The notes beneath the pieces were generated by a model that did not search any database, had not been told where the DNA came from, and saw nothing but the letters and a program-made list of their open reading frames with translations. Of a DNA stretch of 64,000 nucleotides, positions 12,642 through 64,000 are shown one piece after another. Source of the DNA: Octopus vulgaris (taxonomy: Eukaryota); contig OX597823.1 in the NCBI GenBank assembly GCA_951406725.2, forward strand, positions 35,712,001 to 35,776,000, read 5' to 3'. How positions within the stretch are numbered: the stretch's first letter is position 1; each line of letters begins with the position of its first letter. Made by a program: the position numbers and the translations under genes.

Positions 12642-12744
12642 TCACCTGAGGAGACGCATCTGCTTCTACGGTGTATTACAACTATTTGTACAGCATCTCA
12701 CCTGCAAAGTACCGGTGCATGAGGGGACGAAACGATCTTAGTGG
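12642..12744 (+). ncRNA. Degenerate type-I hammerhead-like motif (PLE pLTR)
   Basis: tcac-CTGAGGA-g...gac-GAAAC-gatc-TTA-gtgg; helices II and III partly mismatched; lies downstream of the PLE relic on the same strand. Confidence 0.45.
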
Positions 12745-14283: not shown

Positions 14284-14432
14284 TATATATATATAATACA
14301 GTGTACATTTAAACACATTAAGAGGTTTCCATCTTAGGAATCCTTTACGCTAGAAAAAACAGCTAAAGTCCAAACCACTAATAAATGATGAATTCTCGAA
14401 TGAAATGAAAAATAAAACATTTACCATCTCTT

Positions 14433-14503
14433 TCCTGGACCTTGGTTTCTGACTTATTTTAGCAAATAAAATAATTTGCTAGGCAAAGTCTTCTTCAACA
14501 GGG
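14433..14503 (-). ncRNA. Hammerhead-like motif, variant core
   Basis: cctg-TTGAAGA-agactt...aagtca-GAAAC-caag-GTC-cagg; C3 replaced by U and an A.A pair at the base of helix II. Confidence 0.5.
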
Positions 14504-14960
14504 ACGCCAAGATTAAACATATAAACACGAAGCCAATCCAGCATGCGCCTCTTGCTTATATATTCTAATTTGTTTTTTTTTTCAAATCCACCACGCAAGC
14601 GCAGTTCTTTTTGTCGGCAGCAAAAAGATGCCAGCAACCTCTTCAAACGAATCTACCAGAAATCATTATACATAATTAATATCAGGGTAATAAAGATTTT
14701 AGAAATTTTTACTACCAGTCACCTAGCGTATAGAAAAATTAGTCAATAGACTATATATTATTCCTATAAAATACAATGTACATTTAAACACATTATGAGG
14801 TTTCCATCATAGAAATCCTTTACGCTAGAAAGAACAGCTTAAGTCCAAATCACTAATTAGGGATAAATTCTCGAATGGGATGAAAAATAAAAACATTTAC
14901 CATCTCTTTCCTGGACCATGGTTCCTGACTAGACTCGTGTTTATCTGTTTAATCTTGGCG

Positions 14961-15032
14961 TCCCTATTGAAGAAGACTTTGCCTAGTAAATGATTTGATT
15001 TGCTAAAATAAGTCAGAAACCATGGTCCAGGA
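14961..15032 (+). ncRNA. Hammerhead-like motif, variant core (inverted copy)
   Basis: TTGAAGA-agactt...aagtca-GAAAC-catg-GTC-cagga with palindromic ACCATGGT helix III. Confidence 0.5.
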
Positions 15033-15269
15033 AAGAGATAGTAAATGTTTTTATTTTTCATTCCCTTCGAGAATTTATCCCTAATTAGAGGTTTGGATTT
15101 TAGCTGTTCTTTCTAGCGTAAAAGATTCCTATGATGGAAACCTCTTAATGTGTCTAAATGTACACTGTATTTTATATGAATAATATATAGTCTATTGACT
15201 AATTTTTCTATACGCTAGGTGACTGGTAGTAAACATTTCTAAAATCTTTATAACTCTGATATTATTAAT

Positions 15270-15315
<46 letters not shown>

Positions 15316-15319
<4 letters not shown>

Positions 15320-16138
15320 TAATATAGGATAGAATTTTTCGAAAAAATTCTATCAATGGCCAGCATATTAAAAAATACCTTTAAAGGTTAAATGTATAAA
15401 CAACTTATAAACAAGGGCAAAAGAAAAAAAATTCTAATGCCAAATATTCCGACAAAGAGACTTCGTCAATAACCATACAATTTATCACTATAAGTACGTA
15501 TCTCGAAGAAAGCCGACAAAAATTTCTAAAAAAAATCCGTTATTACCATATCGGACCCGATTTCAGAGTTAATTCATAAGAACCTTTTCTTCATCAGTGA
15601 TAAATGCGGCAAAGGAATAAATGAAATACTTACTTATACCCATGGAAGAAGCAAACACTAAGTCATGAGCACAATTAAGTACCCCAAATATATCCAGAAT
15701 AGAAATTCTCCAGCACACCTCGAGAACGTGCGATTCGAACTGAAAACTCTCACAGAGTGAGAGAGTCCGGTAGTGAACACTATTAAATTTACATCTAATA
15801 TAGGATAAAAAATTTTCGAAAAAAATCCTATCAATGACCAGCATATTAAAAAATACCTTTAAAGGTTAAATTTATAAACAACTTATAAACAAGGGCAAAA
15901 GAAAAAATTTCTAATGCCAAATATGCCAAAAATATACACTTCTCAATAACCATATAATTTATCACTATAAGTACGTGTCTCGAAGAAAGTGATAACGGAT
16001 TTTTTTAGAAATTTCTGTCGGCTTTCTTCGAGACACGTACTTATAGTGATAAATTATATGGTTATTGACGAAGTGTCTATTTTCGGCATATTTAGCATTA
16101 GAAATTTTTTCTTTTGCCCTTGTTTATAAGTTGTTTAT
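15316..16138. mobile_element. Non-coding PLE/retrozyme-like element: partial tandem (period 476 bp) plus inverted arm
   Basis: catctaatataggat at 15316 and 15792; 15990-16138 is the reverse complement of ~15397-15547; (TA)n on both sides. Confidence 0.8.
15548..15603 (-). ncRNA. Type-I hammerhead-like motif
   Basis: tatca-CTGATGA-aga...tct-GAAA-tcgg-GTC-cgata; conserved core intact, helices I and III imperfect. Confidence 0.6.
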
Positions 16139-16338
16139 ATATATATATACAGCAATAAGAAAACAGAGAGGATCAAGAGGTGGTATTCATCAAATGTTAG
16201 ACATTATATTATGTCTGTTTATTTAAAAAAAAACAATTATAACATATGCTTTACATATATAATATATACATATATAATATATGAAAATATCAGCAATTAT
16301 TAAAATATATAATGTAGAGCATAGAAAATAGGATAGTA

Positions 16339-16460
16339 TCTTACAGCTGTTTCAGCCAAGAGGCCATAGTATCCCACTCTACTTCCATCCCTTCAGTCAA
16401 CTGAAGTATTTGGTAGTTAAGATTAAGGTACTTAAGTGTGTCTCTGGGCTTCGTCAGAGA
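16339..16460 (-). ncRNA. Type-I hammerhead ribozyme candidate with extended helix II, GUA site
   Basis: tct-CTGACGA-agcccagag...ctcttggct-GAAAC-agct-GTA-aga. Confidence 0.7.
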
Positions 16461-16557
16461 GGATTAGAAACTTCATAAGGTTAAGTTATAAGTATAAATA
16501 CATACATATATACACACTTTGACATATACACAATTACTCATAAATATACACACACAC

Positions 16558-16589
<32 letters not shown>

Positions 16590-16599
16590 ATGCATACAC

Positions 16600-17075
16600 A
16601 GTTGCGTACTGTGCTCGATCTAATCGAGTGGCCCCTTTCCCAAAAAATTTTGAGTCTTCGGTAGAAAAGAATATTTTATCGGCGGAAAATGGCCTAAAAC
16701 AATGATAAAACCCAGTGCAGTATACTCAAATCTGATTAATCTGCATTTTTCGGGGGCTCGTAGTCGGCGTCGGAGATTCTTTTAGTCAACAACATTTCGA
16801 GGAGCCTGATTAATGTTTGTTGCAAATTTGGAGGAAAACGACTGGATACTTTTCAAATTGCAAGCCTTAACACTACGAAAATGCTTTAAAATGCGGTTTA
16901 TCTTCCCCTGGGCCTGCATTAGGCAAGAAGTTGAAATTTCTTTGGTCCATGACACTCCATAGATCCTATGTAATACCTGTGTAAAATTTCATTCAAATCG
17001 GTTGGGTGGATTTCGAGTTTTAACGGCATGACAAACACACACAGACACACATCCCGTGTTTTATATATATATAGA
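16600..17075 (-). mobile_element. Helitron-like element, 5' part
   Basis: Minus strand starts TCtatatatatataaaacacgggatgtgtgtctgtg; related to the adjacent element; 3' end not seen. Confidence 0.6.
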
Positions 17076-18206
17076 CTAGCATTATGACCCGTCGTTGCCG
17101 GGTCATAGTGCTAGTGCATGTATATTTGTGTATATATATGTGTACATATTACATGTATATCTATATATATACATCTACACATAAAATACAAAATACAAAG
17201 TTATATCTTGAAATCGCTAGTGATAACAATACTCAAAATATATAACAGACTGGAATTGTAAGCCCGTCTCTTGTAATTTCGATCAATTGTATCTTGTCCT
17301 CCCTCTTGTATAGAAGTGTGGCTACAATCCAGCCTACCTCAACTTCTGGGGGTGGGGGCATTTTAAATTTTTATCCGGCACGTCCTACGTCCCAGATATA
17401 AAGGTAAAAATAAAATATTTCCACTTTGCAAGTTCGAGTCGAGTACTCCCTTGCACGCTCCGTTGATTCGAACCTTGCTTCTATTGTGGCGAATTTACCG
17501 CCTCTAGTTAAATATCTTTCATAGTCGCACCAAGACACTTTTCGATGGTGCTTTCCTCCAGGTGTTCAAATCTTTTTTCTCTACACTGTATACTTTATAG
17601 ACAATGGTATTTTCTTTAATTTAATTTTTTATTATCCATCTGGACTATTCCATTTCTGCACACTAATTTTATTTTTAATTTATTCCCATTCATGTGAAAC
17701 CACTTCTTCAAGTTCAAGTAATTGATGCAATTTTATACCAATTGCTATTTTTACTTTTGTTATGTTACGATTATATTATACTTTAGTTTGATTTTAATTA
17801 TTACTTACTACATATACAATTGTTATTAGTATTTTTATTGTTAACACGTAATACTGAAATAGTGGAGAATATGTGATATTGCTATGGGCTCGCTCTAGGT
17901 AAGAAGTTGAACATTTTTTTTGCCCATGAAACTACATGAACTCTAAGTAAGGCATGTGTAAAATTTGAATGAAATTGGTTGTGTAGTTCTCAAGTTTTAG
18001 GGAATCGTAATGGAGAAGATATGATATTGCTGTGGGCTCGCCCTAGGCAAAAAGTAAAAAATTTTTGCCGATGACACTCCCCGGACCCTAAGTAAGGCAT
18101 TGGTTGTGTAGTTCTCAAGTTTTAGGGAAACACAGACAGACAGTCAGACAGACAGACAGTCAGACAGACAGACAGACACACATTCTCAGTTTTATATATA
18201 TATAGA
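17076..18206 (-). mobile_element. Non-autonomous Helitron (~1.13 kb)
   Basis: A|TCtatatatatataaaactgag 5' end with (CTGT)n, internal ~145-bp duplication (17862/18009), 3' hairpin and CTAG|T. Confidence 0.8.
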
Positions 18207-18286
18207 TTACCAGGACGATAGCGTAAATCGATAGACGTCCAACCTATACACTTGATGCTGTAGTAGTAGTAGAAATAGTAATAGTG

Positions 18287-18329
<43 letters not shown>

Positions 18330-21214
18330 GTGTTGCTTTTGTTGTTTTATTATAGCCGGTGCTAAACATGTCAGTTATATTCCTTGTTTTGTTTGAACTA
18401 CTCAATTAAAATATTTCGCTCTGAGTAGTTTTCACTTCTCAAACAAATATGTGGAATTCCAAAATGGAAGTGATTCCAGAATTGTATTTATGGCAAACTA
18501 ACGTAACATCTTTTATGTAAAGCCATACATGAAACGGCTTTCTAGCCAAATGACATTCACAACATCGAGAAAATGGAATGCTTTTTAAAATTATCGATTT
18601 TAAATGGGAAATACTGTATACTTGTGTGATATTTGCTCGACTTATATATTTCGTCTATTCTTTCAAATGATAAAGGGTGTGCCTTGAAGTACAGATTATG
18701 GATTCGTTCGAGAAACCTGACGCAATCGAGTTTCTGCTCCATACTTTTCACTTGAAAACTGTAAGTCGGCAACTTAATCCATAATATTTCAATGAATTCA
18801 TCCTTCATCTCAGGAAGAAGATATAAAGATTAATATGACGCTAATTATTGCAGCTTCATCAATGTAGTTTACTTTCATTTCTCATTATGGTTCGTGTAGT
18901 ATTATTGGAAACTCTCTTACGTTCCCTACTAGAATATTGGACGCTAAAATCCTCTTTGTCCAAGAGAATAGTTTATACTCTCCTTTATAAGAGGGCAATT
19001 ACTTGAGTCTATAACGCATCAATATTTCCAACTGACAATCTCTTCGTATTCTGAGATTAAACACATATATGTGCAGCGTCCCAGTGTGTCTAGATCTAAG
19101 AGAGGTTGGGTATTGCTGTCTACATCCCTAAAACGAGCAGAATTACCTCACCTCCCTAAGCAGCGGTAAAACTTTATTAGGAACGCTCAGCTGGTCACTT
19201 GACTTGCTATGAATTGCAGCCAAATCTCCCTAGCATCTTAAAAATAATGACAACGCATGACATAACGTCTAAAAAGACAGGATGATTACTGTTGGAATCT
19301 CTCTAATCATAGATTCACCCAGTCAGGATTGATCGGGACTAAACAACAACAACAACAACAAGATGATAGAACTCTAAATTCAGTGGTTGCTTCGTGAATT
19401 TGAATCGCAGTGTTTCTGGGCGGAAAGGGCTCTATTAAGCTAATCCTTCCTGGATCGAAATATGACCTTACCAATGTCCAAGGAATGATATCTAGATAGG
19501 AATTGAATTCAAACTGTTGATCCCTGATTGATAGAATAATTAATTAATACAATTCTAAATTAAATCAAATATTATTTTGATTACATCAAAATTGTCTACA
19601 ACTATTCTTGTTCATTCATCAGAAAGTATATTTTACATTTTTCTTCCCCACCTTTTTTTTCTTTTTCTTTTTTTTTTTTTTTTGGTAGGTAGGCTACAAA
19701 TTTTACTTGATCCAAAGTTTTGCTGCATTTTTATTGCTATGACTAAATTATGAAATATATTTACGATCAAATAACTAAAATTATTATAATTAAAATCATA
19801 TTCAAGAATATTTCTGGAAAGGTATATATACTTCATCATGGTTTTAGTGATTAAGCTATTTTATTCCTTTTCTATTTTACCTGATCATTTTATTATTTTA
19901 TAATAGCCTTTATGAAATAAACAATTTTTGTACCCCTAGAAATTCATACTTAGCTTACATATAACAGTACCGGTATCTTCACAACTTATAAACAAACTGC
20001 TTAGATTATAATTTAGTTAATATATAGTTAGCATGTTCTTTCGCCTCAGTACTTCTTTATTAAATACCAGTAAATGCCAATGATCAATCTTCATAGATAC
20101 CATCTAATAAGTTAATATTTAAGTATATAATATGAATAGATATTAAACTATTTCTATGTAATTTCTTTCCTCCCTCTATTGTGGTAAATTTTGGTATATA
20201 CTCAAAAGTATTCAAAAAAATTATCCTTTTGGTTACAACATTCTTCTTAATATCTTCTTGATAACTCTAAATTTTAACTTTATACAATATAGCAATATTG
20301 TTTAAAGTATTCAACATATACCCCATGATAAAATTTCCCCTGTATTATCATCATTGGTTTTACTAGAGTCTTGCCCCTTTAATTGATAACTAACATCTTG
20401 ATTTAAGATTTTCCTTTACCAAATCTCATTATATAGCTTCAAATTAATCTTGATAGTTTTATGACTATACCCACTATGATTTCTGTCGATTCCCTCAACA
20501 CCTTTCCTAACAGACACTGCTCCTTGTTCCTTGGCCTTACATTTTGATATACAAAGATTTGATAAACAAGACTATAAATTAAAACTGATCCCCCAAAATA
20601 GTGACAAGCTAGATCTCTAACAAGTGTATTTTTCCTGATACTTTAGTATCTTCTAAGCTGAAGTGAAGACGTTTTAGATCAAAATTATATTAGTGTGTCC
20701 ATCTGTTTTAATCTAATTTAATTCTACGTATTTATGCAGCTGGGGATTACTCTGCATTTAAATTGATGTAATGGTTGCATTGTTCAGTTAAATGGAGTCG
20801 CTTGAAACAATCGTACTGCATTACCTCTGGATATCCTGTTGCTTATTTTGATTTTAATCACCTTACTTTGAAATTGTATGGATAATACCGTACTAAATTC
20901 TGGTACCTCAACTTAAGTACCTAATTCATCTGAATCTAAATTTTTGCATATATATAACAATAAGAAAATGGAGGGGATCAAGAGGTGGTATTCATCAACT
21001 TTTAGACATTATATTATGTCTATTTATTTATTTAAAAAAACAATTATAACAATATATATATGTATATAAAAATACCAGTAATTATTAAAATATATAACGT
21101 AGAGCATAGAAAGTAGGATATTATCTTACAGCTGTTTCAGCTAATAGGAATAATATAATACACCTAATAATAATAATAATTGATTACTTTGTATGCATAT
21201 ACATATACATATAC

Positions 21215-21272
<58 letters not shown>

Positions 21273-21352
21273 TTATGTCTATTTATGTATATGTAAAAGT
21301 GTGCATATATGTATGTATGTATTTATAACTTAACCTTGTGAACATTCTAAAC

Positions 21353-21474
21353 TCTCTGACGAAGCCCAGAGACACACCCAAGTGCCTTAATCTTATCTAC
21401 TAAATACTTCAGTTGACTGAAGGGATGGAAGTAGAGTGGGATACTATGGCCTCTTGGCTGAAACAGCTGTCAGA
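21353..21474 (+). ncRNA. Type-I hammerhead ribozyme candidate with extended helix II, GUC site
   Basis: tct-CTGACGA-agcccagag...ctcttggct-GAAAC-agct-GTC-aga; canonical core, palindromic ACAGCTGT, helix I only 3 bp by eye; predicted cleavage after C21471. Confidence 0.75.
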
Positions 21475-21849
21475 TACTATCCTAATTTCTACACTTTACG
21501 TTATATATTTTAATAATTACTGGTAATTGTTATATATTTAATATGTAAAGCATCATATGTTATACATGTATGTATATTGTTATAATTGTTTTTTTAAATA
21601 AATAAATAAATAAATAAATAAAGAGACATAATATAATGTCTAAAATTTGATGAATACCACCTCTTGATCCCTCCATTTTCTTATTGCTGTATAAATTAAG
21701 GATAAAAACTATTTACCCTCACCCATTTATTATATTCAGTGGTGTAATTGCCATGCAATGAACAGCACATGTTAATTGGGTATTCTACCAGCAGTATATT
21801 GGAGATATTATCCTTCAGTTGGTTGGATTCACAACCTCTAACTCTCTTG

Positions 21850-21903
<54 letters not shown>

Positions 21904-21920
21904 TTTCTTTTTTTCTTTTC

Positions 21921-22213
21921 CGACCAGGCTATCAGATGTTGCTACACATCGCTGGTCACAATGCGCTTCGCATTGTTTTAGCCTTCAAATAGCTCTACTC
22001 CGCTGGCTAAGCGAGTAGGCCAACAGAAGAAAGAGTGAAAGAAAGTTGTGGCGAAAGAGTACAGCAGGGATCGCCAACACCCACTGCCGGAGGCCCGTAG
22101 AGCTTTTAGGTGTTTTCGCTCAAAAAACACTCACAACGCCCGGTCTGGGAATCGAAACCGCGATCCTACGACCGCGAGTCCGCTGCCCTAACCTCCGTGC
22201 CATTGCGCCTCCA
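21921..22213 (-). mobile_element. tRNA-derived SINE, family 2
   Basis: Head ggaggcgcaatggcacggaggttagggcagcggactcgcggtcgtaggatcgcggtttcgattcc with A/B boxes; second copy at 25782. Confidence 0.9.
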
Positions 22214-22251
<38 letters not shown>

Positions 22252-22413
22252 TATGCATATATATATATAATAAATTAATAAATAAATAAAACATATGCAT
22301 ATATACATGCATATATGTACGTGCCTACCTCTACATGTATATATATATGCATATATGCATATATGGGTACAGGACACCAAAAAAAACGTCGAACACAATG
22401 AGAAACGAAAACT

Positions 22414-22588
22414 ACTAAGCTAGTAGTTTCCTGCTATTGTCATCATGAGAATCTTTAATATTGTTGTTGTTGTTAGCAGTTGTGGTCATTTAGAGGTACT
22501 ATTTCTACTGCTATGACCACAACTGCTAACAACAACAACAATATTAAAGGTTCTCATGATGACAATAGCAGGAAACTACTAGCTTAGT
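22414..22588. repeat. Near-perfect hairpin, 76-bp arms, 23-nt loop
   Basis: 22414-22489 vs 22513-22588, one mismatch (a G.U pair in plus-strand RNA). Confidence 0.95.
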
Positions 22589-23192
22589 CAAGACAAAAAA
22601 ACTGTAAAATCAATGTTATTTTGGGGTTTAAAGTTCTATTACTACAGCTAATCCTGCCACCACCAACAACAAAAACGACAACAAAAATAAAGGGGATGAA
22701 ATGGTGATGATAAATGTAAAAATCCCTGGGAAATGTTGTTTACAACATTTCTAAAATATAATTTGAAGAAAGAGGAGAAAGAAACAAATTAACAGAAAAT
22801 CAAGGGTTGAGAAATATAGTGTGATAGCTGAATGGTCCCATTCATCTATCACCCTAATTTTCTGTTAATTTCTTTCTTTCTCTTCTTCCTCTAAATTACC
22901 CCTGGCGTTAAGTCTATTAACGGATTTTTAAAAAAATAACTTGCCAGCGTTCCCCGTCATCATATACGTGGTATTCATATTCTGTTAAAATAGCTTATTG
23001 ATGTGTTTTGCTTCTCTTTTTCCCCTGACAAGAAGATTGCATTGTTTTACATCATTTTTATTCCCGCCGGAATAATCTCAATGCTTTCTTCGAAACTTAT
23101 TTTGGAAATAACACCTGCATTTGACTCCATTTCTTAATTTCTCTCTCTCCCTCTTTCTCTCTTTCTCTAATTGAAGAAAAAAGGGTAAAAAA

Positions 23193-23807
23193 TACTCCTT
23201 GCTAAAAGCCAAAGCCACACCTTCAAAAACCCACCATAAATTTTACGATAAGGATACACACGAGCAATGTAATGAATATTTCAAAAATAGGCTCACCTCT
23301 GAATGGAATACAAAGATAAGTAATACATATTTCAATACCAACTGATTTTACGCTTCGCATGATAAACATGCTTTGTGATTTTCAGTTGAAAATAGCATTT
23401 AACATCTATTTTTAAAATATTCACTATTTCTAACTTTAAACATTCCGCTCCGTTTAAAAGAAACTATCGTAAACAATAAAAATTTTAGTATTTATATTTT
23501 TAACGTTTACGATAGCTTCTTTTAAACGGAGCGGGATGTTTAAAGTTAGAAACGCACACGAGTTGACGTAGTGAATATTTTAGAAATAGATGTTAAATGC
23601 TGTTTTCAACAGAAGATCGCAAAGCATGTTTATCATGCGAAGCGCGAAATCAATTGGTATTGAAATATCTATTACTTATCTTTGTATTCCATTCAGAGGT
23701 AAGCCTATTTTTGAAATATTTATTGAATTGCTTGCGTGTATCCTTATCGTAATATTTATGGTGGGTTTTTTTTTTAAAGCTGTGGCTTAGATTTTTAGCA
23801 AAGGGTA
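23193..23807. mobile_element. Fold-back MITE (~615 bp), palindromic over nearly its whole length
   Basis: TActccttgctaaaa ... ttttagcaaagggTA; arms pair to a short central loop near 23490; putative TA target duplication. Confidence 0.85.
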
Positions 23808-23829
23808 TTTATACGCTACTTTTATATAC

Positions 23830-24245
23830 TCTCTTTATTCTTTTACTCTTTTACTTGTTTCAGTCATTTGACTGTGGCCATGCTTGAGGACCACATTTAG
23901 TCGAAGAAATCGACACCAGGACTTATTCTTTGTAAGCCCAGTACTTATTCTATCGGTCTCTTTTGCCGAACTGCTAAGTTACGGGGACGTAAACACACCA
24001 GCATCTGTTGTCAATCGATGTTGGGGGTGACAAACACAAACACAAACACACACACATATATATATACATATACATATATACGACGAGCTTCTTTCAGTTT
24101 CCGTCTACCAAATCCACTCACAAAGCTTTGGTCGGCCCGAGGCTATAGTAGAAGACACATGCCCAAGGTGCCACGCAGTGGGATTGAACCCGGAACCATG
24201 TGGCTGGTAAGCAAGCTCCCTACCACACAGCCACTCCTGCGCCTC
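23830..24245 (-). mobile_element. SINE family 1, full length
   Basis: Head ggcgcaggagtggctgtgtggtag, tail gactgaaacaagtaaaagagtaaaagaa. Confidence 0.9.
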
Positions 24246-24272
24246 TATATATATATACAGACATATATATAT

Positions 24273-24340
<68 letters not shown>

Positions 24341-24971
24341 GTAGAGAGAAGCAAATAAAATAGTGAGGGATTATCAATATATGGGCAAAATACTTCATGA
24401 GTTCTCTGCTAGCACATCAGGCTAACAATATTACTTAGACTAGTGAAGAACACCATGTAATCATTTGGCAGGCTCCAAGGTTATGGCTCATCGTAGTTTT
24501 ATATTGCAAGTCCGTGGATGGGCAAAAACAAAGTGTTTTTTATACATAGTGATATATAAGAAACAAGTTACAAATAATGATCATTACATATTTTTCCTTT
24601 ATTGGAAGTTTACTCAATTGGGGAAAATTGAATGACCTAAGAAAATTAATGCTACTTTCGTCAGAGCCTTTTCTAGTTATAACAAGCAGAGCACTAGAGG
24701 AATAGCTGTCGTGTGAGAAAGGTAGGAGGAGAAGATGGAAATATTCAAGTAGAATATAGAACAGAAGAAGATTGGTTACAAAAAGGTGGAAGTAGGTGAA
24801 GGGATGATATAGGAGTCACTTACTAGAAGCAGGAGCATTATACTCCTAAGTTTGGGAGAGGTACAGTCTAAAACATTTGTGTTTGCAGTCAGGTCAGCAC
24901 TTCTTACCATATTAACATTGTATATAGCTCATTCAGACAAAGGACACTAAAATAATAATAACAATAATAAT

Positions 24972-27004: not shown

Positions 27005-28601
27005 ATTATTGTTATTATTATTATTATTATTATTATGCTGTTTGACTTTTGCTTTATGTCTGTACAAGTTGGCTCTAAGTCTCACCCAGAGACCTCAAGA
27101 GACAACAGGTTGGAAATTCTGTGCCATATATTTGGGGGGTTTTTTGTTGTTTTTTTTTTGGTGTTGTACTAGTGAATGTCTAATACATTAAAAAAAATAA
27201 ATAAATAAATAAATAAATAAAAAAATAAATAAAAGTTTGTTTTAAACCTTGGGATTACATAAAGAGTATTTTGCGTAGGATATGAGCAGTTTCCATGAGC
27301 ACTATCTATTGAATTTCTGCCATTTTGGTGTTTCCTGGTATCTGAGTTAGGTAGCAATCAGTCCCTTTCGCTATCATTCCCAGGGCACCTATGACAACAG
27401 GTATTGTTTTAGTCTTCAGCTTCCACATTTTGCTGAATTCTATTTCAAGATTTTTATATTTGCTCAGTTTTTGGTAGGTCTTGACAGATACGTTTATATC
27501 GATTGGGACAGTCATATCAATGAGGAGGCATGTTCTTTGTCTGAAGTCTTTCAATATGATGTCTGGCCTATTTGCATCTATCTTCCTGTCAGTTTGAATG
27601 GTGAAGTTCCAGAGGAGTGAGATGTGGTCATTTTCAAGCACAGGAGGTGGATTGTGTTCCCACCAGTTTTTTTCATGGGGCAAATCTAGGTTTTTGCAAA
27701 TTACCCAGTGAATATATTGTGCAGCTCTATCATGCCTACTGAGGTACTCTGTAGGCGCTAGAAGACTGCATTTTGAGACAACATGGTCAATGGTTTCATT
27801 TTGTTGTCGGCATACATGACATGTTGGGCTACTGCCGTTCTTTAATATGTTGGCCTGGTAGTTTCTTGTTGGTAGGCATTGATCTTGAGCTGCTATGATA
27901 AACCCCTCTGTTTCAGATTTTAAGCCAGAGGCCATTAGCCATTGATGGGTCAGGGCTTTGTCGATATCTGCATTATTCGCTCTCTTTGGGTATTTGCCAT
28001 AGAGAGGTTTTTCTTGCCATTTATTATTCAGAATATCTAAGGCCGCAGTTTTGGCACGGGTTTTCATGCGCCTAGCTTTTTCTGTGCTTGTTTCTTTTAT
28101 GTCTATCTCTAATTCCGAAATTGGTTGTATTCGGAATTCACTTAGATATTCCTTTGCCTGTTTTGTGACTGAGTATGATGCTTTCTTGTTTTCATGTTTT
28201 GAGACAAGTTTTAACATCCAGTCCTCAGAGTTTTTCAGGTAGGTGTCTAGGCCAATTGTAGCAATCTTCATTGTTATTGCCAGTTGCAAAAGACCACGGC
28301 CTCCCTCTTTTCTTGGCAGATAGAGTCGTTCTGTATCTGCCTTAGGGTGGTGAATTCTATGCATTGTCAACAGTTTCCTTCTCTTTCTGTCGAGCTGACA
28401 TATTTCAGTAATTGACCAGTTAACAATATTGAAACTGTAAGTCACAACTGGTATGGCTAATGCATTGATCGCTTCGATCCTGTTTCTTGCATTCAGCTCT
28501 GTCTTGAGTATTGCTCTCACTCTTCGATAGCATTCTCTCCTGATCCTTTCCTTCATCTCTGAATGCCTTATTCCGTTCCCTTCAATTACCCCTAGGTACT
28601 T
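27005..28601 (-). mobile_element. 5'-truncated R4/Dong-type non-LTR retrotransposon (ORF 27306-28556: RT thumb, CCHC finger, RLE)
   Basis: KYLG, RLYLPRKEGGRGL, AAQDQCLPT, CHVC-ETIDHVVSKC, RHD, NRPDII, IDMTVP, KLSKY; (TAA)n on both sides. Confidence 0.92.
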
Positions 28602-28620
28602 ATTATTATTATTATTATTT

Positions 28621-28712
<92 letters not shown>

Positions 28713-28720
28713 CGTCGTCG
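28602..28720. repeat. (TAT)n-(TAG)n trinucleotide microsatellite
   Basis: Direct reading. Confidence 0.95.
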
Positions 28721-28809
28721 TATTAGTATTATTAGCATTAGCAATACTAGTGCTATTAGTATATTAACATTCGTTTTAGCCGTAGTCCGTCCTACCTCAG
28801 AAGCGGAGA

Positions 28810-38579: not shown

Positions 38580-40260
38580 TTATATCTTTTCTTTAATTTT
38601 CGGGTTTTTTGTAGTTTTGGCAGTCTTGTCAAACTTAAGGTTTTTCAAACATTCTATGTCAGACCCTAGTAGCTTAATTTGGTGTTGAATACGCTCTTGC
38701 CAAGAAGGCTTTTTTTGAGAATGTTGCCATTTTCTAATCTTTTCACCACATAGAATCGTTGAGATTTTCGTGGATGCATAGTACAGGTGGTTGAGATCTG
38801 TGATATCAACATCATTAGCTGATATTATATACTTATGTGCAAGGCGGGCGGTTTTTACCAATTATTTTGAGGTTTTGGTTAGAATTGCGGATTTTGGGGA
38901 GAGTATCGCGTTCATCCATACTGGTTTCGTTAATTTTCAGCCATTCAATCATGATTTGATTTTTTAGAACATATAGTTCTGTTACTGACTGAAGTAGAGA
39001 ATGACCAAATTAAACATGCATTGAGGTATAAAAAGAACAAAGCTGTAACTAAAGAAGATACTACAGGGGAAATAATTATAGACCAGCACAGGGCTGATGA
39101 AAACGCAGTAATGAGTGAAAAAGTTAATGTAATTGATAGGCAATGTGTAATACTCTCTGAACCAACCATAAACACTAAGACAGATGAAAATCAAATAGAT
39201 GAAGAAAGTCACACAAATATTATTTGTGTGACTTTCTTCATCTATTTGATTTTCATCTGTCTTAGTGTTTATGGTTGGTTCAGAGAGTATTACACATTGC
39301 CTATCAATTACATTAACTTTTTCACTCATTACTGCGTTTTCATCAGCCCTGTGCTGGTCTATAATTATTTCCCCTGTAGTATCTTCTTTAGCTACAGCTT
39401 TGTTCTTTTTATACCTCACTGCATGTTTAATTTGGTCATTCTCTACTTCAGTCAGTAATTTTTTTCATAATGTTTCTTCTGACATTGGCAAGTTTGTTAC
39501 TATGTAGGGTCTTACTTCAGGGTGTTTCTGTCTCCAGTTTAAGTAGGTTTGTACTGTATTAGACTTATCTGTGGGGAAATATATGGCATGGTAGAAGGCG
39601 GTAAGAACTTCTTTATTATCTTCCCTAGACCATTTTTCATTCTTTTTCTTTTTGTTAAAATGATAACGGGCATGGATGGCCATCTGTTGGAATATTCCGA
39701 TTTTTCGACCCGAATCTGGTTCAATATTCGAGTACGTGGTCTTTTGTAACCCGGTCGATGACCATTCCGATTTATAATTTGTTTTGTTAACAGTAAGGCA
39801 TGGCGAGATTCGACGTTGACATTAGGCGACGGATCTGTCTGTTTAGGGTTAATTTTTTGCGACAACACCGTCTCCGTGTTCTCTGCATGTAAACATTGCT
39901 CACAACATAGCTTCTTAAGGCTAACAGATCTATATCAAGTGTCTGGCCCTTTGTAATCCGGTCGACGACTAACCTGGCTTGTATTTTGCTTTGTTATCAC
40001 GGAGGCATGACTAGCTTCGACGTTGACATTAGGGGGCGGATTTGTCTGTTTAGGGTCAATTTTTTGAGACAACACCGTCCCTGAGTTCTCTGCATGTAAA
40101 CATTGTTTGAAACGTAGCTTCTTAAGGCTAACAGATCTGTATTCGTCTGTAATTTCTTTTTTGTTGTTGTTGTTGATAGATTTATCTCCGATCATAGTTT
40201 TTTTTAGGTGTTTTTAAACTTATGAATGGTTCACTATGTGTTAGTTCGAAAAATGAAAAA
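38580..40260 (-). mobile_element. R4/Dong-type N-terminal region, interrupted by a palindrome; contains a 207-bp in-frame tandem duplication
   Basis: KWSREDNKEVL, NL.NVRRNI, ITDLNHLYYAS, KPSWQERIQHQIKLL. Confidence 0.7.
38982..39458. repeat. Near-perfect palindrome, 238-bp arms, 1-nt spacer
   Basis: Centre T39220; two mismatches seen; produces mirror 145-aa ORFs on both strands. Confidence 0.95.
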
Positions 40261-49649: not shown

Positions 49650-52364
49650 TGGGAGTGACAAAAGAAAATATCCAATACGGAAAAGAAGGATCCAGGCAGA
49701 GTTAGACATGCACTCGAAGGAAATCTCTATGTTAGTCCGAAAAGAAAAGGGGAGCTTAAAAGCGAACAAAAATACAGGGCGCTGAAAAGGATGTATACTA
49801 TTGAAAGAAAGGGCCTGAAAATTAGTAATAGAGGAACTGAAACAGCGCCTCGTTGCAAAGAAAGCAAAGATGGTAAGATACGACCAAAGAATGAAGGGTT
49901 ACCGCCAGAATAGGTTATTCGGTGTAGATCAGAAGAGATTCTATAAAGAAATAAATGGAGAGTTCACGGATGAAAAATTGATACCAGATAACATTGAAAG
50001 TCAAAGGCATTGGAGTGACATCTGGAACAAAGGCAAGGAGCACAAGAAGGATGCTGAATGGTTGCAAGAACTGAAACAAACAGTAGTTCTGTCCACAACA
50101 GGCACAACTAGTCATTTCAGTTAGGAAAGTGAAGGATATCAGCAAAAAATTAGCAACTGGAAGGCCCCGGGACTAGATGGAGTTCAAGGCTACTGGATCA
50201 AAAGATTTGGTTAATGTCATGCACGAATAGCTGCGCAACTCAACATCTTGTTAAATGCCGACCAAGTAACACGAGAATGATTAACATTGGGTAGGACAGT
50301 GCTGTGCCTGAAAAGCATCGAAAAAGGCAATACGGTAGACAATTAGAGGCCGATATCCTGTTTGCCACTTATGTGGAAATTATTGACTGGAATACTCGCA
50401 GAGTCAATGTACGAACATCTGGAAAAAAATGGAGTCTTGCCACATGAGCAGAAGTGTGGCAAGTGTAAGTGCACCAAGGATCAACTCCTGATAGATAAAA
50501 CTGTACTAAGAGACTGCAAGAGGAAGAAAAGTAACTTAGCCATGTAATGGATCGGCTATCGTAAGACGTACGATATGATCCCACATTCTTGGATTATGGA
50601 GTGTATGAACCTATTTGATATTGCATCGAATGTTAAGCGATTGCTTGGAAAAAGTATGCCGAATTGGAGGACGGACCTGACAGCATACGAAGTTTAGGGA
50701 CAGTAGAAATTAGGAAGGGCATCTTCCAAGTGGACTGCCTGTCCCCACTTATCTTTTACTGGGCTTGATACCACTAACACTGATTCTGATGAAAGCAAAA
50801 GCTGGGTATGTATTCAAAAGCTGCCAACAAAATGTCAGCCATTTGTTATTCATGGACGACCTCAAACTTTATGGTAAAGATGAAGCCCAAGTTAATTCCC
50901 ACTTTGATACGGTGTATACCTTCAATGCTGATATCAGAATGGAGTTTGGAGTGAGAAAGTGTGGTGTGTTATTCTTGAAGAGAGGCAAAATCAAATGTAT
51001 GGACGGGCTAACGATACCGTCAGAGGAGGTTATGGAGCAGATAAAAAGAGACGGGCTGCAAGTACTTGGGGATTTTGGAAATGGATAAATTGATGTAGAA
51101 ATAAATGACAGAAAAATTTAAGGTGGAGTACTTGCGCAGACTGAGACTGGTACTTAAGTCGAAATTAAATGGATGGAATAAGATCGAAGCTATCAACACC
51201 TGGGCGGTTTCATTCCTTAGATATGGAGCAGGGGTAATCACAGTAGACGATCTAAAGAGCTTAGACAGAAAGACGATGAAAATACGGGTCACTCTACCAC
51301 AAAAGACATGGAAGATATCGGTCACTCTACTACAAAAGACAAAGAAGATATGGGTCACTCTACCACAAAAGTGACACAGACTGTATGTACAAAGAAAAAG
51401 AGAACTTATTGGATGCGAACACAGCATTTGAGTAGAAGAAAACAACATAGCACGGTATGTAAAAATTCCACAGAACCGCTATTATTAGAAGTAAGAAGGT
51501 CAGGCTTCTATTGGATGAAAGATTGCAAAGATAAAGCACTATACAAGAAATTGAAAACGAACGAAACTGAAAATAGGTGTGTAAAGAAAAGAATGCATGG
51601 TCAACTTCATAGGGATGTTGAAGATAAGACAGACCGAGAAGCAAGATGGCTGTGGATGACTAAAAGTCATTTAAAAGCGGAAACGGAGGCTCTAATCTGT
51701 GCTGCCCAAGAGCAAGCACTAAGAACAAACTACATAAAATACAGAATAGACAGCACAGCAGAAAGTGATAAGTGTAGAATCTGTGGACAAAACGGTGAAA
51801 CGGTATGGCATATTACCAGTCAATGTACGCCACTAGCTCAGAAGGAATATAAGAGACGCCACGACAATATAACCAGGCTTGTCCATTGGACACTTTGCAA
51901 CAAGTATATATTTGACAGCAAAAATTGGTACGACCACAAACCTGATGGCATCATCGAAAATAGATTCGGTGCAGCCATGAGATAGAGAATAGGAAGCCGA
52001 ACAAAGTCTTAATTGAGAAAGAAAACAAACTATGCTGGATCATAGACATAGCATGCCCAGTTGACAACAAGGTATGCGATAAGGAAGAAAGAAAGGTAGA
52101 GAGATATGACAAGTTAGCTTGGGAAGTCAAGCAGTTGTGGTCAATGAAAAAGGTAGCAGTAATACCAATAATTATCGGAGCCCTGGGAACAGTGAACAAA
52201 AATCTGGAGAAGTACGTGGAACAAATAGAGGCTGCAATAAGGGTGGAGCACTTTCAGAAAACATCGGTTGAATACTAAGGAAGGTGCTCGAAAAATAACA
52301 GGAGCTATCTTAGTGAACAGCTGACACTATAGTACATCTCCAGCATTAGAAGCTATGCAAAGGC

Positions 52365-58252: not shown

Positions 58253-58352
58253 AGCTACGTACATTTCATGGATACAATTAAATTCGAATTACAATTAAGT
58301 TTAAATTCAATTGAAATAAAATCGATTTAAAATTATAGTCAATCTTCAGGTT
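58253..58352 (-). ncRNA. Type-I hammerhead-like motif in a pLTR-like end (58123-58450)
   Basis: aac-CTGAAGA-ttga...tccat-GAAA-tgtac-GTA-gct; core intact, helices decayed. Confidence 0.5.
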
Positions 58353-60992: not shown

Positions 60993-63900
60993 TTTGATAC
61001 TTTGATACTTTGATAGGTTTCGGCCATTATTGGCCCAGGCCATGTCTAACTTAATAGCACCACCTGGTGAAGTCTTTCAAGTCAGAATTTGGGCACTATG
61101 GCCCACTCAAGTAGAGAGTTATTGTTTACAGAGACATATCCGGGTGTAGGGGGTTTATCCGGGATTTCTTGAAGGAATCTGTCCAAAGACTTCTTGAACC
61201 CTATAGGGTCAGTTTCTGTTTTAATGTGTTTTGGTGTAATGTTAAAGAGAGCGGGGCCAATTGAGGTGAAATAATTGTGCCGTATTGTTGTTATGAGGTG
61301 AGAGTGCGATTTTTGTTTTGGGCGGATGGCACGGGGCCCAAGCCTTGGATGTACCTTAAAGGTGATGCCAACATCATTTGGGCAATGCTGATGGAATATT
61401 TTCCACATCATGCAGATGATGTAGCGCTCACGACGACGTTGGAGAGAATAGAGTTTTAGCTTTTCTAGTCGACCCCAATAGTCGAGGCCTGTCATGCCAT
61501 CTATCTTTTTTGTGATTGCCCTTTGAGGTGCTTCAACTTTTATGATACCTTGTATTGTGTGGGGAGACCACAGTGGACAACAGTATTCAAGGTGGGGTCG
61601 GGCAAAAGTGGAGAAGAGAAGGATAATGGTGTGGATATCTCTCGACTGGAAAGTTCTGAGAATCCAGGAACACATTCTGCGGGCCATGTCAACTTTGGTG
61701 TTTATATGAGTGGCCCAGCTTACGTTGTTGTCCACAATTACTCCCAAGTCTCTGATGTTGTTGGACGCCGCGAGAGTTTCACCTGAAGGAAGGGAGTATG
61801 GGAGTTTCAGGGCATCCTCTTTTCCAAAGTGGATTAGCTCAAATTTATCCTCGTTCAGCAGCATATTGTTTTTTTTCTTTTTTGTTTTTTTCTGCCCATT
61901 GGATAACAGCCAGTAGATCTGACTGAAGGCATGTCCGGTCACTCGCCTCATTTATGACCTTCTGTAGCTTGGAGTCATCTGCAAAGATTTTTATGTTGCT
62001 GTGCTTGATGATGTCATTAATGTCATTAATGTAAATGATGAAAAGAAGTGGGCCCAGCACAGTGCCTTGCGGAACGCCACTACTGACTTTGGCTGGGCTT
62101 GATTTTACCCCTTCAACTACAACATGTTGAGATCTGTCTGTCAGGAAACACTTAATCCATTTCAGTAACTTTCCAGAGACACCAATGTTGGATAGTTTTT
62201 TCAATAGGATCTTGTGATCGACCCTGTCGAAGGCCTTACTGAAATCAAGGTAGATGACATCGGTGTTGGAGCCCTCTCCCAAAGCTCTCAAAATGTCCTC
62301 AAAGTGATGCAGGAGCTGCGTTAGGCAGTCTCTTCCATTACGGAACCCATGTTGGTTGGAGATCAGCCGTCTGTTGCTTTCCAGAAATTGGGTTATTCGA
62401 GATCTCACCACCCTCTCAAATACCTTGATGATATGAGAGGTGAGTGAGATCGGACGGTAATTCACTGCAAGGGACTTGTTTCCCTTTTTGAAAACTGGGA
62501 CAACAGACTGGGACAGAAGGTTTTTGGGAATATAGCCAGCATCCAGTGAGTTTCTCCACAGATTAGCAAGGGGAGATGCAAGTTGGTGTCGACACACCTT
62601 CAGGACACAAGCAGGGAACCTATCGGGGCCTACTGCTGAATTGTGTTTTATTTCGTTTATCGCCGCTAAGACATCAGGGGCACTAAACGTTATGTCCGAT
62701 ATAGTGTGTTGGGGGTTGACATCACTGATACAGCCCAGATCGGCCATATCAGGATTGCTGAAAACAGAGCAGTATTGTTTCTGCAGTATCTCGGCCATGG
62801 ATTTGGCATTATCTTGGAGAGTGCCAGTTTCGTCAATTAGAGGGCCTACAGTGGAGACAGTGACCCTGCGTTTCCTCGCAAATGAAAAGAACACTTTGGG
62901 GTTGAGTTTGATTTTTTCAATGGCCCACTTCTCCTCAGCTGATCTTTGGTTATTGATGAGGGACTTCATGCATTGTTGGAGGTTATATTTTTTGGATTCA
63001 AGCAGTGCGATAGCCGTCGAATGTGTGTGTTGCTGTTGGCAGTACTTTAGTTTGTTAATTTTTTTTGTTTGTTCTTTTTATTTTTCTGATAATGGTTTTT
63101 CTGTTTTGGGGGATTCTGCACTTTTTGTTCACAGGTCTTGGTGGGGAGTGTTTTGCACATATGTCTGTGACGGTGTCTACAAAGATCTGCCAAGATGTTT
63201 TATGGTTGGTGGAGATGTGTGTATGTGTAAAGGACCAGTCAACATTTGATAGCTCGTTCCTGATTGCATCCCAGTTGGCTTTATGGAGATCCATGTTGTC
63301 AAATGGGTGGGCTGGAGGAAGGTCACTAGGATTAGCTTTCGGCTGGTGGAATTTCAAGTTACAGAGAACCATGTCATGGTCTGAAAGAAGGGTTTTTTCC
63401 ACTGTAACGTTATGTATAGTGTTAGTGTGGTTACTAAACACTAGGTCCAAAATGTTCTGATGTCTTGTTGGTGCAAGGACAAGTTGGGACAAGAAAAACT
63501 CATTCGTAAAGTCGAAAAGTGACTCTGCTGCTTCTTTGTCAGCGGTTGAGGCGGGAGTGCTTGGTTTCAAACAGTTTGTAGTCCAGTCAACACAGGGTAG
63601 ATTGAAGTCTCCCATCATGAGTATGTTGCTAGAATGGCACTGTTGAATAAAGCACTTAATGCTGTTGAGGCATTCTTTAAAGCACAGTATGGGTGTTTGG
63701 GGCGGCCTATAGAGCCCAATTACTGTCAGGTCATTGGCTTTGTTGTGCACGGTGACTGATTCACAGTAGCCGTTGGAGAATATACTATTTCCATCTGCCG
63801 TAAATGAATCATGCAGGAAAATAGCAGTTCCACCCTTCCTCCTGCCGATACGATCCGCGCGGATGGTTGTGAAATTCTTCACTCTCACTTCGGCTTCCAA

Positions 63901-64000
63901 GTGGGAGTTGTCAAGGTGGGTCTCAGTGAGAATGAAGAAAGGGATGTGGTGTGAATGGTTACCAACCCAGTCTTCAATGAATTGGACCTTCCATTTTTGT
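60991..64000 (-). mobile_element. APE-endonuclease/RT LINE (CR1/L2-group), ORF2 nearly intact, runs off the window
   Basis: LTETHL, GLYRPP, MGDFNLP, ILDLVF, LSDHD (APE); NYRPISLT, QHGFR, YLDFSKAFD, GVPQGTVLGP, FADDSK (RT); RPHLEY; 3' tail (ATCAAAGT)3. Confidence 0.95.

Follow-up and report, generated by a model that had tools for sequence, protein, structure and literature searches.

The question raised by this locus of Octopus vulgaris is whether a hammerhead motif whose helix II is far longer than is typical can be assigned to a known type of ribozyme, and in what kind of element it resides. The window, that is, the whole stretch of 64,000 nucleotides of contig OX597823.1 that was analysed, contains a type I hammerhead motif with an intact core at 21353-21474 on the forward strand. 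The answer to which we incline with fair confidence is that it is a type I hammerhead with an arm of 97 nt predicted to form three stems, that it lies in what is likely the pseudo-LTR (pLTR) repeat of a Penelope-like element (PLE), and that it is likely to cleave only as a dimer or with the help of a protein.

First of all, the constituents of the core, CUGANGA, GAAA and UH around a three-way junction, are all present, which agrees with the canonical core claimed in the original prediction: CUGACGA is located at 21356-62 and GAAA at 21460-63. The helix I of 3 bp described earlier is found as TCT/AGA, and the palindromic helix III is the self-complementary ACAGCTGT at 21463-70, which forms 2 bp closed by a self-complementary AGCU loop (the type I layout) and overlaps the triplet GUC at 21469-71. 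The helices that can be closed are therefore of 3 bp (I), 4 + 4 bp (II) and 2 bp plus the palindromic loop (III); the monomer is predicted to favour another fold. Helix II, given before as about 90 nt, is indeed expanded, its exact length being 97 nt from A9 to G12, of which 79 nt lie between the strands agcccagag and ctcttggct; the helix proposed for these two strands pairs at 8/9 positions and contains a C-U mismatch. As for the inner hairpin, 7 bp with a 2-nt loop cannot form, and its place is taken by 6 bp with a 4-nt loop.

A strict hammerhead pattern, drawn up post hoc when the motif was already known, has 2 matches in the window, and none was obtained in 200/200 composition-matched resamples. 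A focused Rfam scan of the motif returned 0 matches at E up to 10, and no hammerhead is among the Rfam matches listed for the window (150 of 172). By eye, no contact between loop I and loop II was recognised, and one fold gives a weak AU-rich extension of helix I. The pattern matches found in viral contigs (one) and metagenome contigs (two) were set aside as chance, being without an upstream core or similarity to the window. The coordinates of the motif and of the repeat around it are collected in Table 1.

Table 1. Parts of the hammerhead motif and copies of its repeat, in positions of the window.
Feature	Positions	Strand	Basis
Copy B, full repeat with complete hammerhead 16460-16339 (GUA), ending in (TA)n	16143..16558	-
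Copy C, 5′-truncated half copy	20948..21148	-	self-blast, alignment
C/A junction: AT-rich DNA, (TA)n(TG)n microsatellite	21149..21272	.	sequence
Copy A, repeat of ~420 bp	21273..21696	+	self-blast (16143-16543 vs 21696-21273); alignment
Helix I 5′ strand TCT and catalytic core CUGACGA	21353..21362	+	sequence, pattern scan
Predicted decoy hairpin, 21353-58 with 21367-72	21353..21372	+	folding probabilities
Expanded helix II arm, basal stem IIa 21363-71/21451-59 (4 bp, 1x1 mismatch, 4 bp)	21363..21459	+	fold
Middle stem IIb, 21381-89/21437-45	21381..21445	+	fold, family letters
Tip hairpin CUUCAG/CUGAAG, 6 bp, 4-nt loop	21407..21422	+	predicted P about 0.99
GAAA, helix III ACAGCTGT, triplet GUC (family GUA), helix I 3′ strand AGA	21460..21474	+

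The repeat occurs three times in the window. Copy A consists of a degenerate TATG/TG microsatellite, then the hammerhead and then an AT-rich 3′ part, and its orientation is inverted relative to copies B and C. Copy B is on the strand of copy C, 4.4 kb downstream of it; (TA)n ends both of them, and A and B are identical at 116/122 motif positions. Copy C retains the 3′ strand of stem IIa, GAAA, the palindrome, GUA and the 3′ strand of helix I, but it is missing everything 5′ of the place matching 21450 and is thus without CUGANGA. It has been reported, in the part of PMC8557442 that was available, that PLEs are laid out as a direct repeat plus an adjacent inverted 5′-truncated copy, and copies B (full), C (truncated) and A (inverted) match this pLTR layout; moreover, as in PLEs, the hammerhead lies inside a pLTR-like repeat and the target is AT-rich or (TA)n. 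As far as the letters go, the dimer-type hammerhead in pLTR-like repeats proposed at the outset appears to stand (type I, palindromic helix III, three-copy layout), and the repeat probably represents the pseudo-LTR of some family of Penelope-like retroelements, a membership assigned by layout only.

The protein side of such an element was searched for in the DNA around the copies. No RT or GIY-YIG was detected by Pfam in the 6 stop-read-through frames of 16600-20946 (-) or in the 3 of 21700-24700 (+), and we accordingly class the repeat as non-autonomous and PLE-like and do not call it a PLE. Word searches for a PLE ORF on two frames between C and B found nothing, and phmmer on the third C-B frame gave as its only match P0002, an unnamed singleton of 75 aa without longer relatives and without an Atlas match. 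The translation of 20670-20820 (-) has 58% identity to P0002, so that the DNA beside copy C, at most a putative gene, has a homolog elsewhere. The RT and endonuclease matches near 61.8-64 kb belong to another retroelement type.

Beyond the window, the family was followed in the contigs of 4/24 listed public runs, three of DNA type and one of unknown kind, with 179-413 records per run; the four runs carry four organism codes and are related. The repeat is multi-copy, with many contigs in each of the four. Position 21471 is A in 99.2-99.8% of the summed depth (39-54 contigs per run), and since this exceeds 99%, GUA is the state of the family and GUC is private to copy A, making up less than 1% of family depth in 4/4 runs. 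Both GUA and GUC are cleavable under the NUH rule. The difference between the pLTR copies in their cleavage triplet, which had been presented as meaningful, is ordinary decay, a rare point change in copy A, and in itself carries no weight. The letters were read correctly (GUC here, GUA at 16342 (-) and 21127 (-)), but the one at 21127 is part of a half motif truncated at the equivalent of 21450. Nor is copy A the best-preserved one, as had been supposed, for it departs from the four-run majority letter at five near-fixed sites (21384, 21401, 21415, 21441 and 21471), two of them in a stem and one in the triplet; that is to say, copy A has decayed, and it is probably inactive. The letters at 21415 and 21441 are common to A and B and absent from 92-99.9% of the run depth, a sharing that fits one insertion or one subfamily, while B and C would derive from a single insertion.

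The same contigs bear on a different classification, namely that the repeat is a non-LTR retrozyme, a class of tandem hammerhead units expressed as small circular RNA, of which the window would hold dispersed monomers and in which the arm would be part of a self-paired circle. The unit of ~420 bp, the low GC, the type I layout, the 2-bp helix III and the tetraloop fit that class (PMC7229834), and monomers are common in retrozyme families (bioRxiv 2026.07.22.740005), both sources having been available in part. Self-blast of the window, however, gives no head-to-tail tandem units with the hammerhead, the contigs of the four runs show no back-going joint (those with repeats at both ends being skipped), helix I has 3 bp against the canonical 6, and the inverted and truncated layout is PLE-like, which leaves this classification improbable.

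In the pLTR reading, which is retained here, the arm is predicted to form three stacked stems outside the core, in the order stem IIa, internal loop, stem IIb, a looser region and the tip hairpin. The arm fold has an energy of -28.0 kcal/mol, and 12/500 shuffles are equally stable; the fold of the motif as a whole (z -1.39) is not exceptional. Stem IIb pairs at 9/9 positions with the family majority letters and at 8/9 in copy A, its predicted probability being 0.999 in the former and 0.001-0.005 in the latter, and two near-fixed family letters are enough to restore it to 9/9. The loop of the tip is UUGA in copy A and UUCA in the family majority.

Across the family contigs the helix stems are nearly invariant. 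Among the best 40 of 84 variant rows, no family-level variant falls in the 25 positions of the core, helix I and helix III, so the check on conservation of the core came out as predicted. The twelve listed variable arm sites, which are of intermediate frequency and come from these best-supported 40 rows (the alleles are unlinked, and contigs drop rare variants), fall only once in the 71 core and stem positions of the 122 (1/12, P 2.7e-4), and never in the 53 positions named without variant data (0/12, P 6.8e-4). We infer from this selection on the RNA fold in master elements. The depth also goes up about 2-fold at 21453 in 4/4 runs, but the depth upstream is high as well and this reading of depth is unreliable.

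On the other hand, the arm might be a passenger, inserted in loop II of a minimal PLE hammerhead and tolerated by the master element, its stems incidental and the ribozyme weak or dead in most copies. This is unlikely in our judgement, yet several results lean towards it. The covariation that had been looked for in the insert did not appear, since no compensatory (two-sided) change was seen in any stem, either among the best 40 of 84 variant rows or between the two full copies of the window; the fold of the arm reaches only modest z-scores, of -2.3 and -2.8; a decoy hairpin derived from the arm is predicted to dominate with the commonest letter at 21372; and cleavage by the hammerhead of the Anolis Poseidon element PAc is dispensable for insertion in vitro, according to the available part of PMC11167929. 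Against it, within the arm alone only 1/12 listed variable sites falls in the 46/97 positions that are stem (P 3.3e-3), and an unrelated hammerhead family in the window also has a two-stem arm, of 42 nt.

A coding origin of the long arm is the least probable of the alternatives. Here the end of an element ORF would cross the hammerhead and stop at a TAA overlapping the GUA triplet; copy B does contain a frame that stays open over 38 codons and ends at this TAA, and the loose ends that two runs show upstream of 21345 have, by eye, one open frame with two synonymous differences. But an open stretch of that length in one of three frames is unremarkable, the 12 listed variable sites are distributed as 5, 3 and 4 over codon positions 1, 2 and 3, one allele at 21428 is a stop, and the DNA upstream of the window copies is microsatellite. 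The frame of the loose ends is another one, and an RNA hairpin would explain them equally well.

Upstream of 21345, 5 contigs of run X1 and 3 of run X2 run into different sequence that would form, immediately 5′ of helix I, a hairpin of 6 bp whose loop differs; these contigs possibly represent another subfamily or an autonomous partner. It was also seen by eye that the family triplet together with helix I (21469-21474) reads GTAAGA, like a splice donor, and that a T-run with YAG is present in B and C near 21622-21626, about 155 nt past GTAAGA. The two could belong to a retained intron that overlaps the site of cleavage, a retained spliceosomal intron in the pLTR being one of the traits by which PLEs are recognised.

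As mentioned above, the monomer is predicted to favour another fold, and in the models this is due to the decoy hairpin, which would sequester helix I and the start of the core and is predicted to be mutually exclusive with stem IIa. Its predicted probability is 0.62-0.96 in copy A (three flank lengths), 0.98-1.0 in copy B and about 0.98 with the majority letters, so that it is predicted to block the core in both full window copies. The G allele at 21372, with 18-52% of depth, abolishes it and brings stem IIa to P 0.98-0.99, and U at 21367 (36-75% of depth) causes a partial shift away from it. The penalty of the active monomer fold amounts to 11-13 kcal/mol in copy A, where that fold is disfavoured because 21353-58 pairs with 21367-72, and to 6-10 kcal/mol with the majority letters.

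In a dimer, two ACAGCUGU palindromes would pair into one long helix III. The palindrome duplex is predicted at -13.1 kcal/mol, against a cost of freeing core and palindrome of 3-7 kcal/mol per molecule for the family type and 8-10 for copy A; by these energies, which are nearest-neighbour predictions without tertiary terms, some family alleles could form the dimer, which is unlikely in the case of copy A. On such modelling, cleavage is likely only as a dimer or with protein help. Pairing in cis is excluded for copies A and B, which lie on opposite strands. Copy C keeps the substrate-strand parts on the strand of B, and hence a full copy could cut the half copy, whereas the half copy could not cut a full one; halves like C would serve as substrate only, for a full copy on the same transcript, and mobilisation would be carried out by a PLE protein encoded elsewhere. 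Copy C as integrated still has the bases 5′ of the cleavage site, which fits an uncleaved template.

The unrelated hammerhead family of the window is located at 14289-15177 and has a UUGAAGA core, the 42-nt arm, a palindromic helix III and GUC; its copies are a full one at 14498 (-), a half one at 14925 (-) and an inverted full one near 14968 (+). Its layout (full, half, inverted full) is identical to that of the A/B/C repeat. The breakpoint of the half copy is 5 nt 3′ of the second stem in this family and 4 nt 3′ of stem IIb in copy C, and in run X2 three contigs have a loose end at 21450. These two post hoc cases give a lead, though no proof, that the arm might determine where the RT stops or where a transcript starts. 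A broader reading, to which we assign a small share of probability, takes the arm as a selected helix II domain that gates the ribozyme through a decoy remodelled by protein and also sets the point, 4-5 nt before stem IIb, at which the upstream pLTR is truncated in two unrelated families of the window, so that the half copy gives a 'one-and-a-half' hammerhead on the monomer transcript, and takes such arms as a common PLE class that has escaped searches. The recurring truncation point at the arm offers a directly testable feature of the family.

A third hammerhead is found at 15597 (-), within 15316-16145, with an arm of 26 nt, a longer helix III and an AUA triplet, in a direct-plus-inverted repeat. 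Its inverted copy near 15990 starts shortly past the predicted site of cleavage, by a few bases, and looks as though copied from cleaved RNA, and copy B terminates in a TA run at the edge of this element. Two further long arms had been listed for the window. That at 12642 is plausible in itself (core at 12646, arm of 76 nt), but the motif, at 12642-12744, is damaged, has helix II pairs at 5/8 positions and belongs to an unrelated family without similarity to the one at 21353. The second, at 58253, is not comparable: with its core at 58349 (-) and an arm of 75 nt, it fails even the relaxed scan, which gave 5 real matches against a null mean of 0.39.

Among the other elements of the window, pieces of non-LTR retrotransposons occur at 27306-28763 (-), 51221-51985 (+) and 61082-63999 (-), with zf-RVT matches below the cut-off and, near the window end, RVT_1 and exo/endo/phosphatase above it. 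A near-perfect inverted repeat of 95 bp at 39173-39267 is MITE-like, and the Rfam miRNA matches there are below the gathering score.

Compared with known systems, the motif shares with the PLE hammerheads of PMC4209133, as described in the part available, the type I layout, CUGANGA/GAAA, a helix I of 2-5 bp and a palindromic helix III, as well as the predicted dimer and mostly dispersed truncated copies. The Marsupenaeus PLE hammerhead (PMC4209133 Fig S3) even has the identical helix II base, AGCC/GGCU, with a loop of 3 nt. The main difference lies in the arm, which is far longer than in typical PLE hammerheads, as had been asserted: 97 nt here against at most 23 nt, counted by eye, in the 56 aligned metazoan motifs of PMC4209133, and against 53 nt at most in deviants, the longest arm in PMC8557442 File S2 being that of PLE-X1_sMoe, about 53 nt and marked non-canonical. 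A literature search, which was not exhaustive, found no PLE hammerhead with an arm of the order of 97 nt. The descriptor of Cervera and de la Pena 2014 admits a stem II of 3-7 bp and a loop of 3-10 nt, that is, an arm of about 24 nt at most (available part of PMC4209133); the 97-nt arm fails this minimal-PLE descriptor, which would miss it. Given this limit and the Rfam miss, the number of long-arm hammerheads may have been underestimated, and motifs of this kind may be present in some of the PLE families for which only half cores were described.

The Hydra-clade and Chlamys/PLE-X elements (Craig et al. 2021, PMC8557442, in the available text with Files S1/S2) are alike in the helix III ACAG/CTGT, in GUA or GUC (A or C at the cleavage site), in (TA)n targets and in inverted 5′-truncated copies; the loop 2 of the Hydra clade is of 3-10 nt, unlike the arm here, and the frames searched around the copies gave no ORF by which the repeat could be placed in a clade. 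The hammerhead of PAc likewise lies in a pLTR, is inactive alone and needs its protein for cleavage (Frangieh et al. 2024, PMC11167929, partial text), and it offers a model for protein-assisted folding; PAc differs in having a tested ORF that starts in stem II and a tested activity, whereas the repeat at 21353 is known from sequence alone. The natural alleles described here are predicted to decide whether the core is hidden or open, a prediction that lends itself to direct testing.

Clec2 is also a natural discontinuous hammerhead whose large insertion defeats pattern searches, but it is of type III, with a helix I insertion of 150-1500 nt in a host mRNA, while the insertion here lies in helix II, and the motif is of type I and part of a repeat (PMC6155905 and PMC2950038, in part). 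Animal non-LTR retrozymes, which are thought to be moved by PLEs, are similarly non-coding, of a few hundred bp and of type I (PMC7229834; bioRxiv 2026.07.22.740005); compared with what is available of these descriptions, the repeat at 21353 has no tandem units, a short helix I and no recognisable canonical tertiary loops. In mycovirus hammerheads a 'long' helix II means 6-8 bp (PMC13725137), and in hammerheads of type II, stem II is open (PMC3088659), on which account, as far as the extracts of both go, a long arm is no catalytic surprise. Taken by its letters, the long-arm motif would be a structural variant of the PLE-type dimeric hammerhead, a known type with a new arm size and a putative activity.
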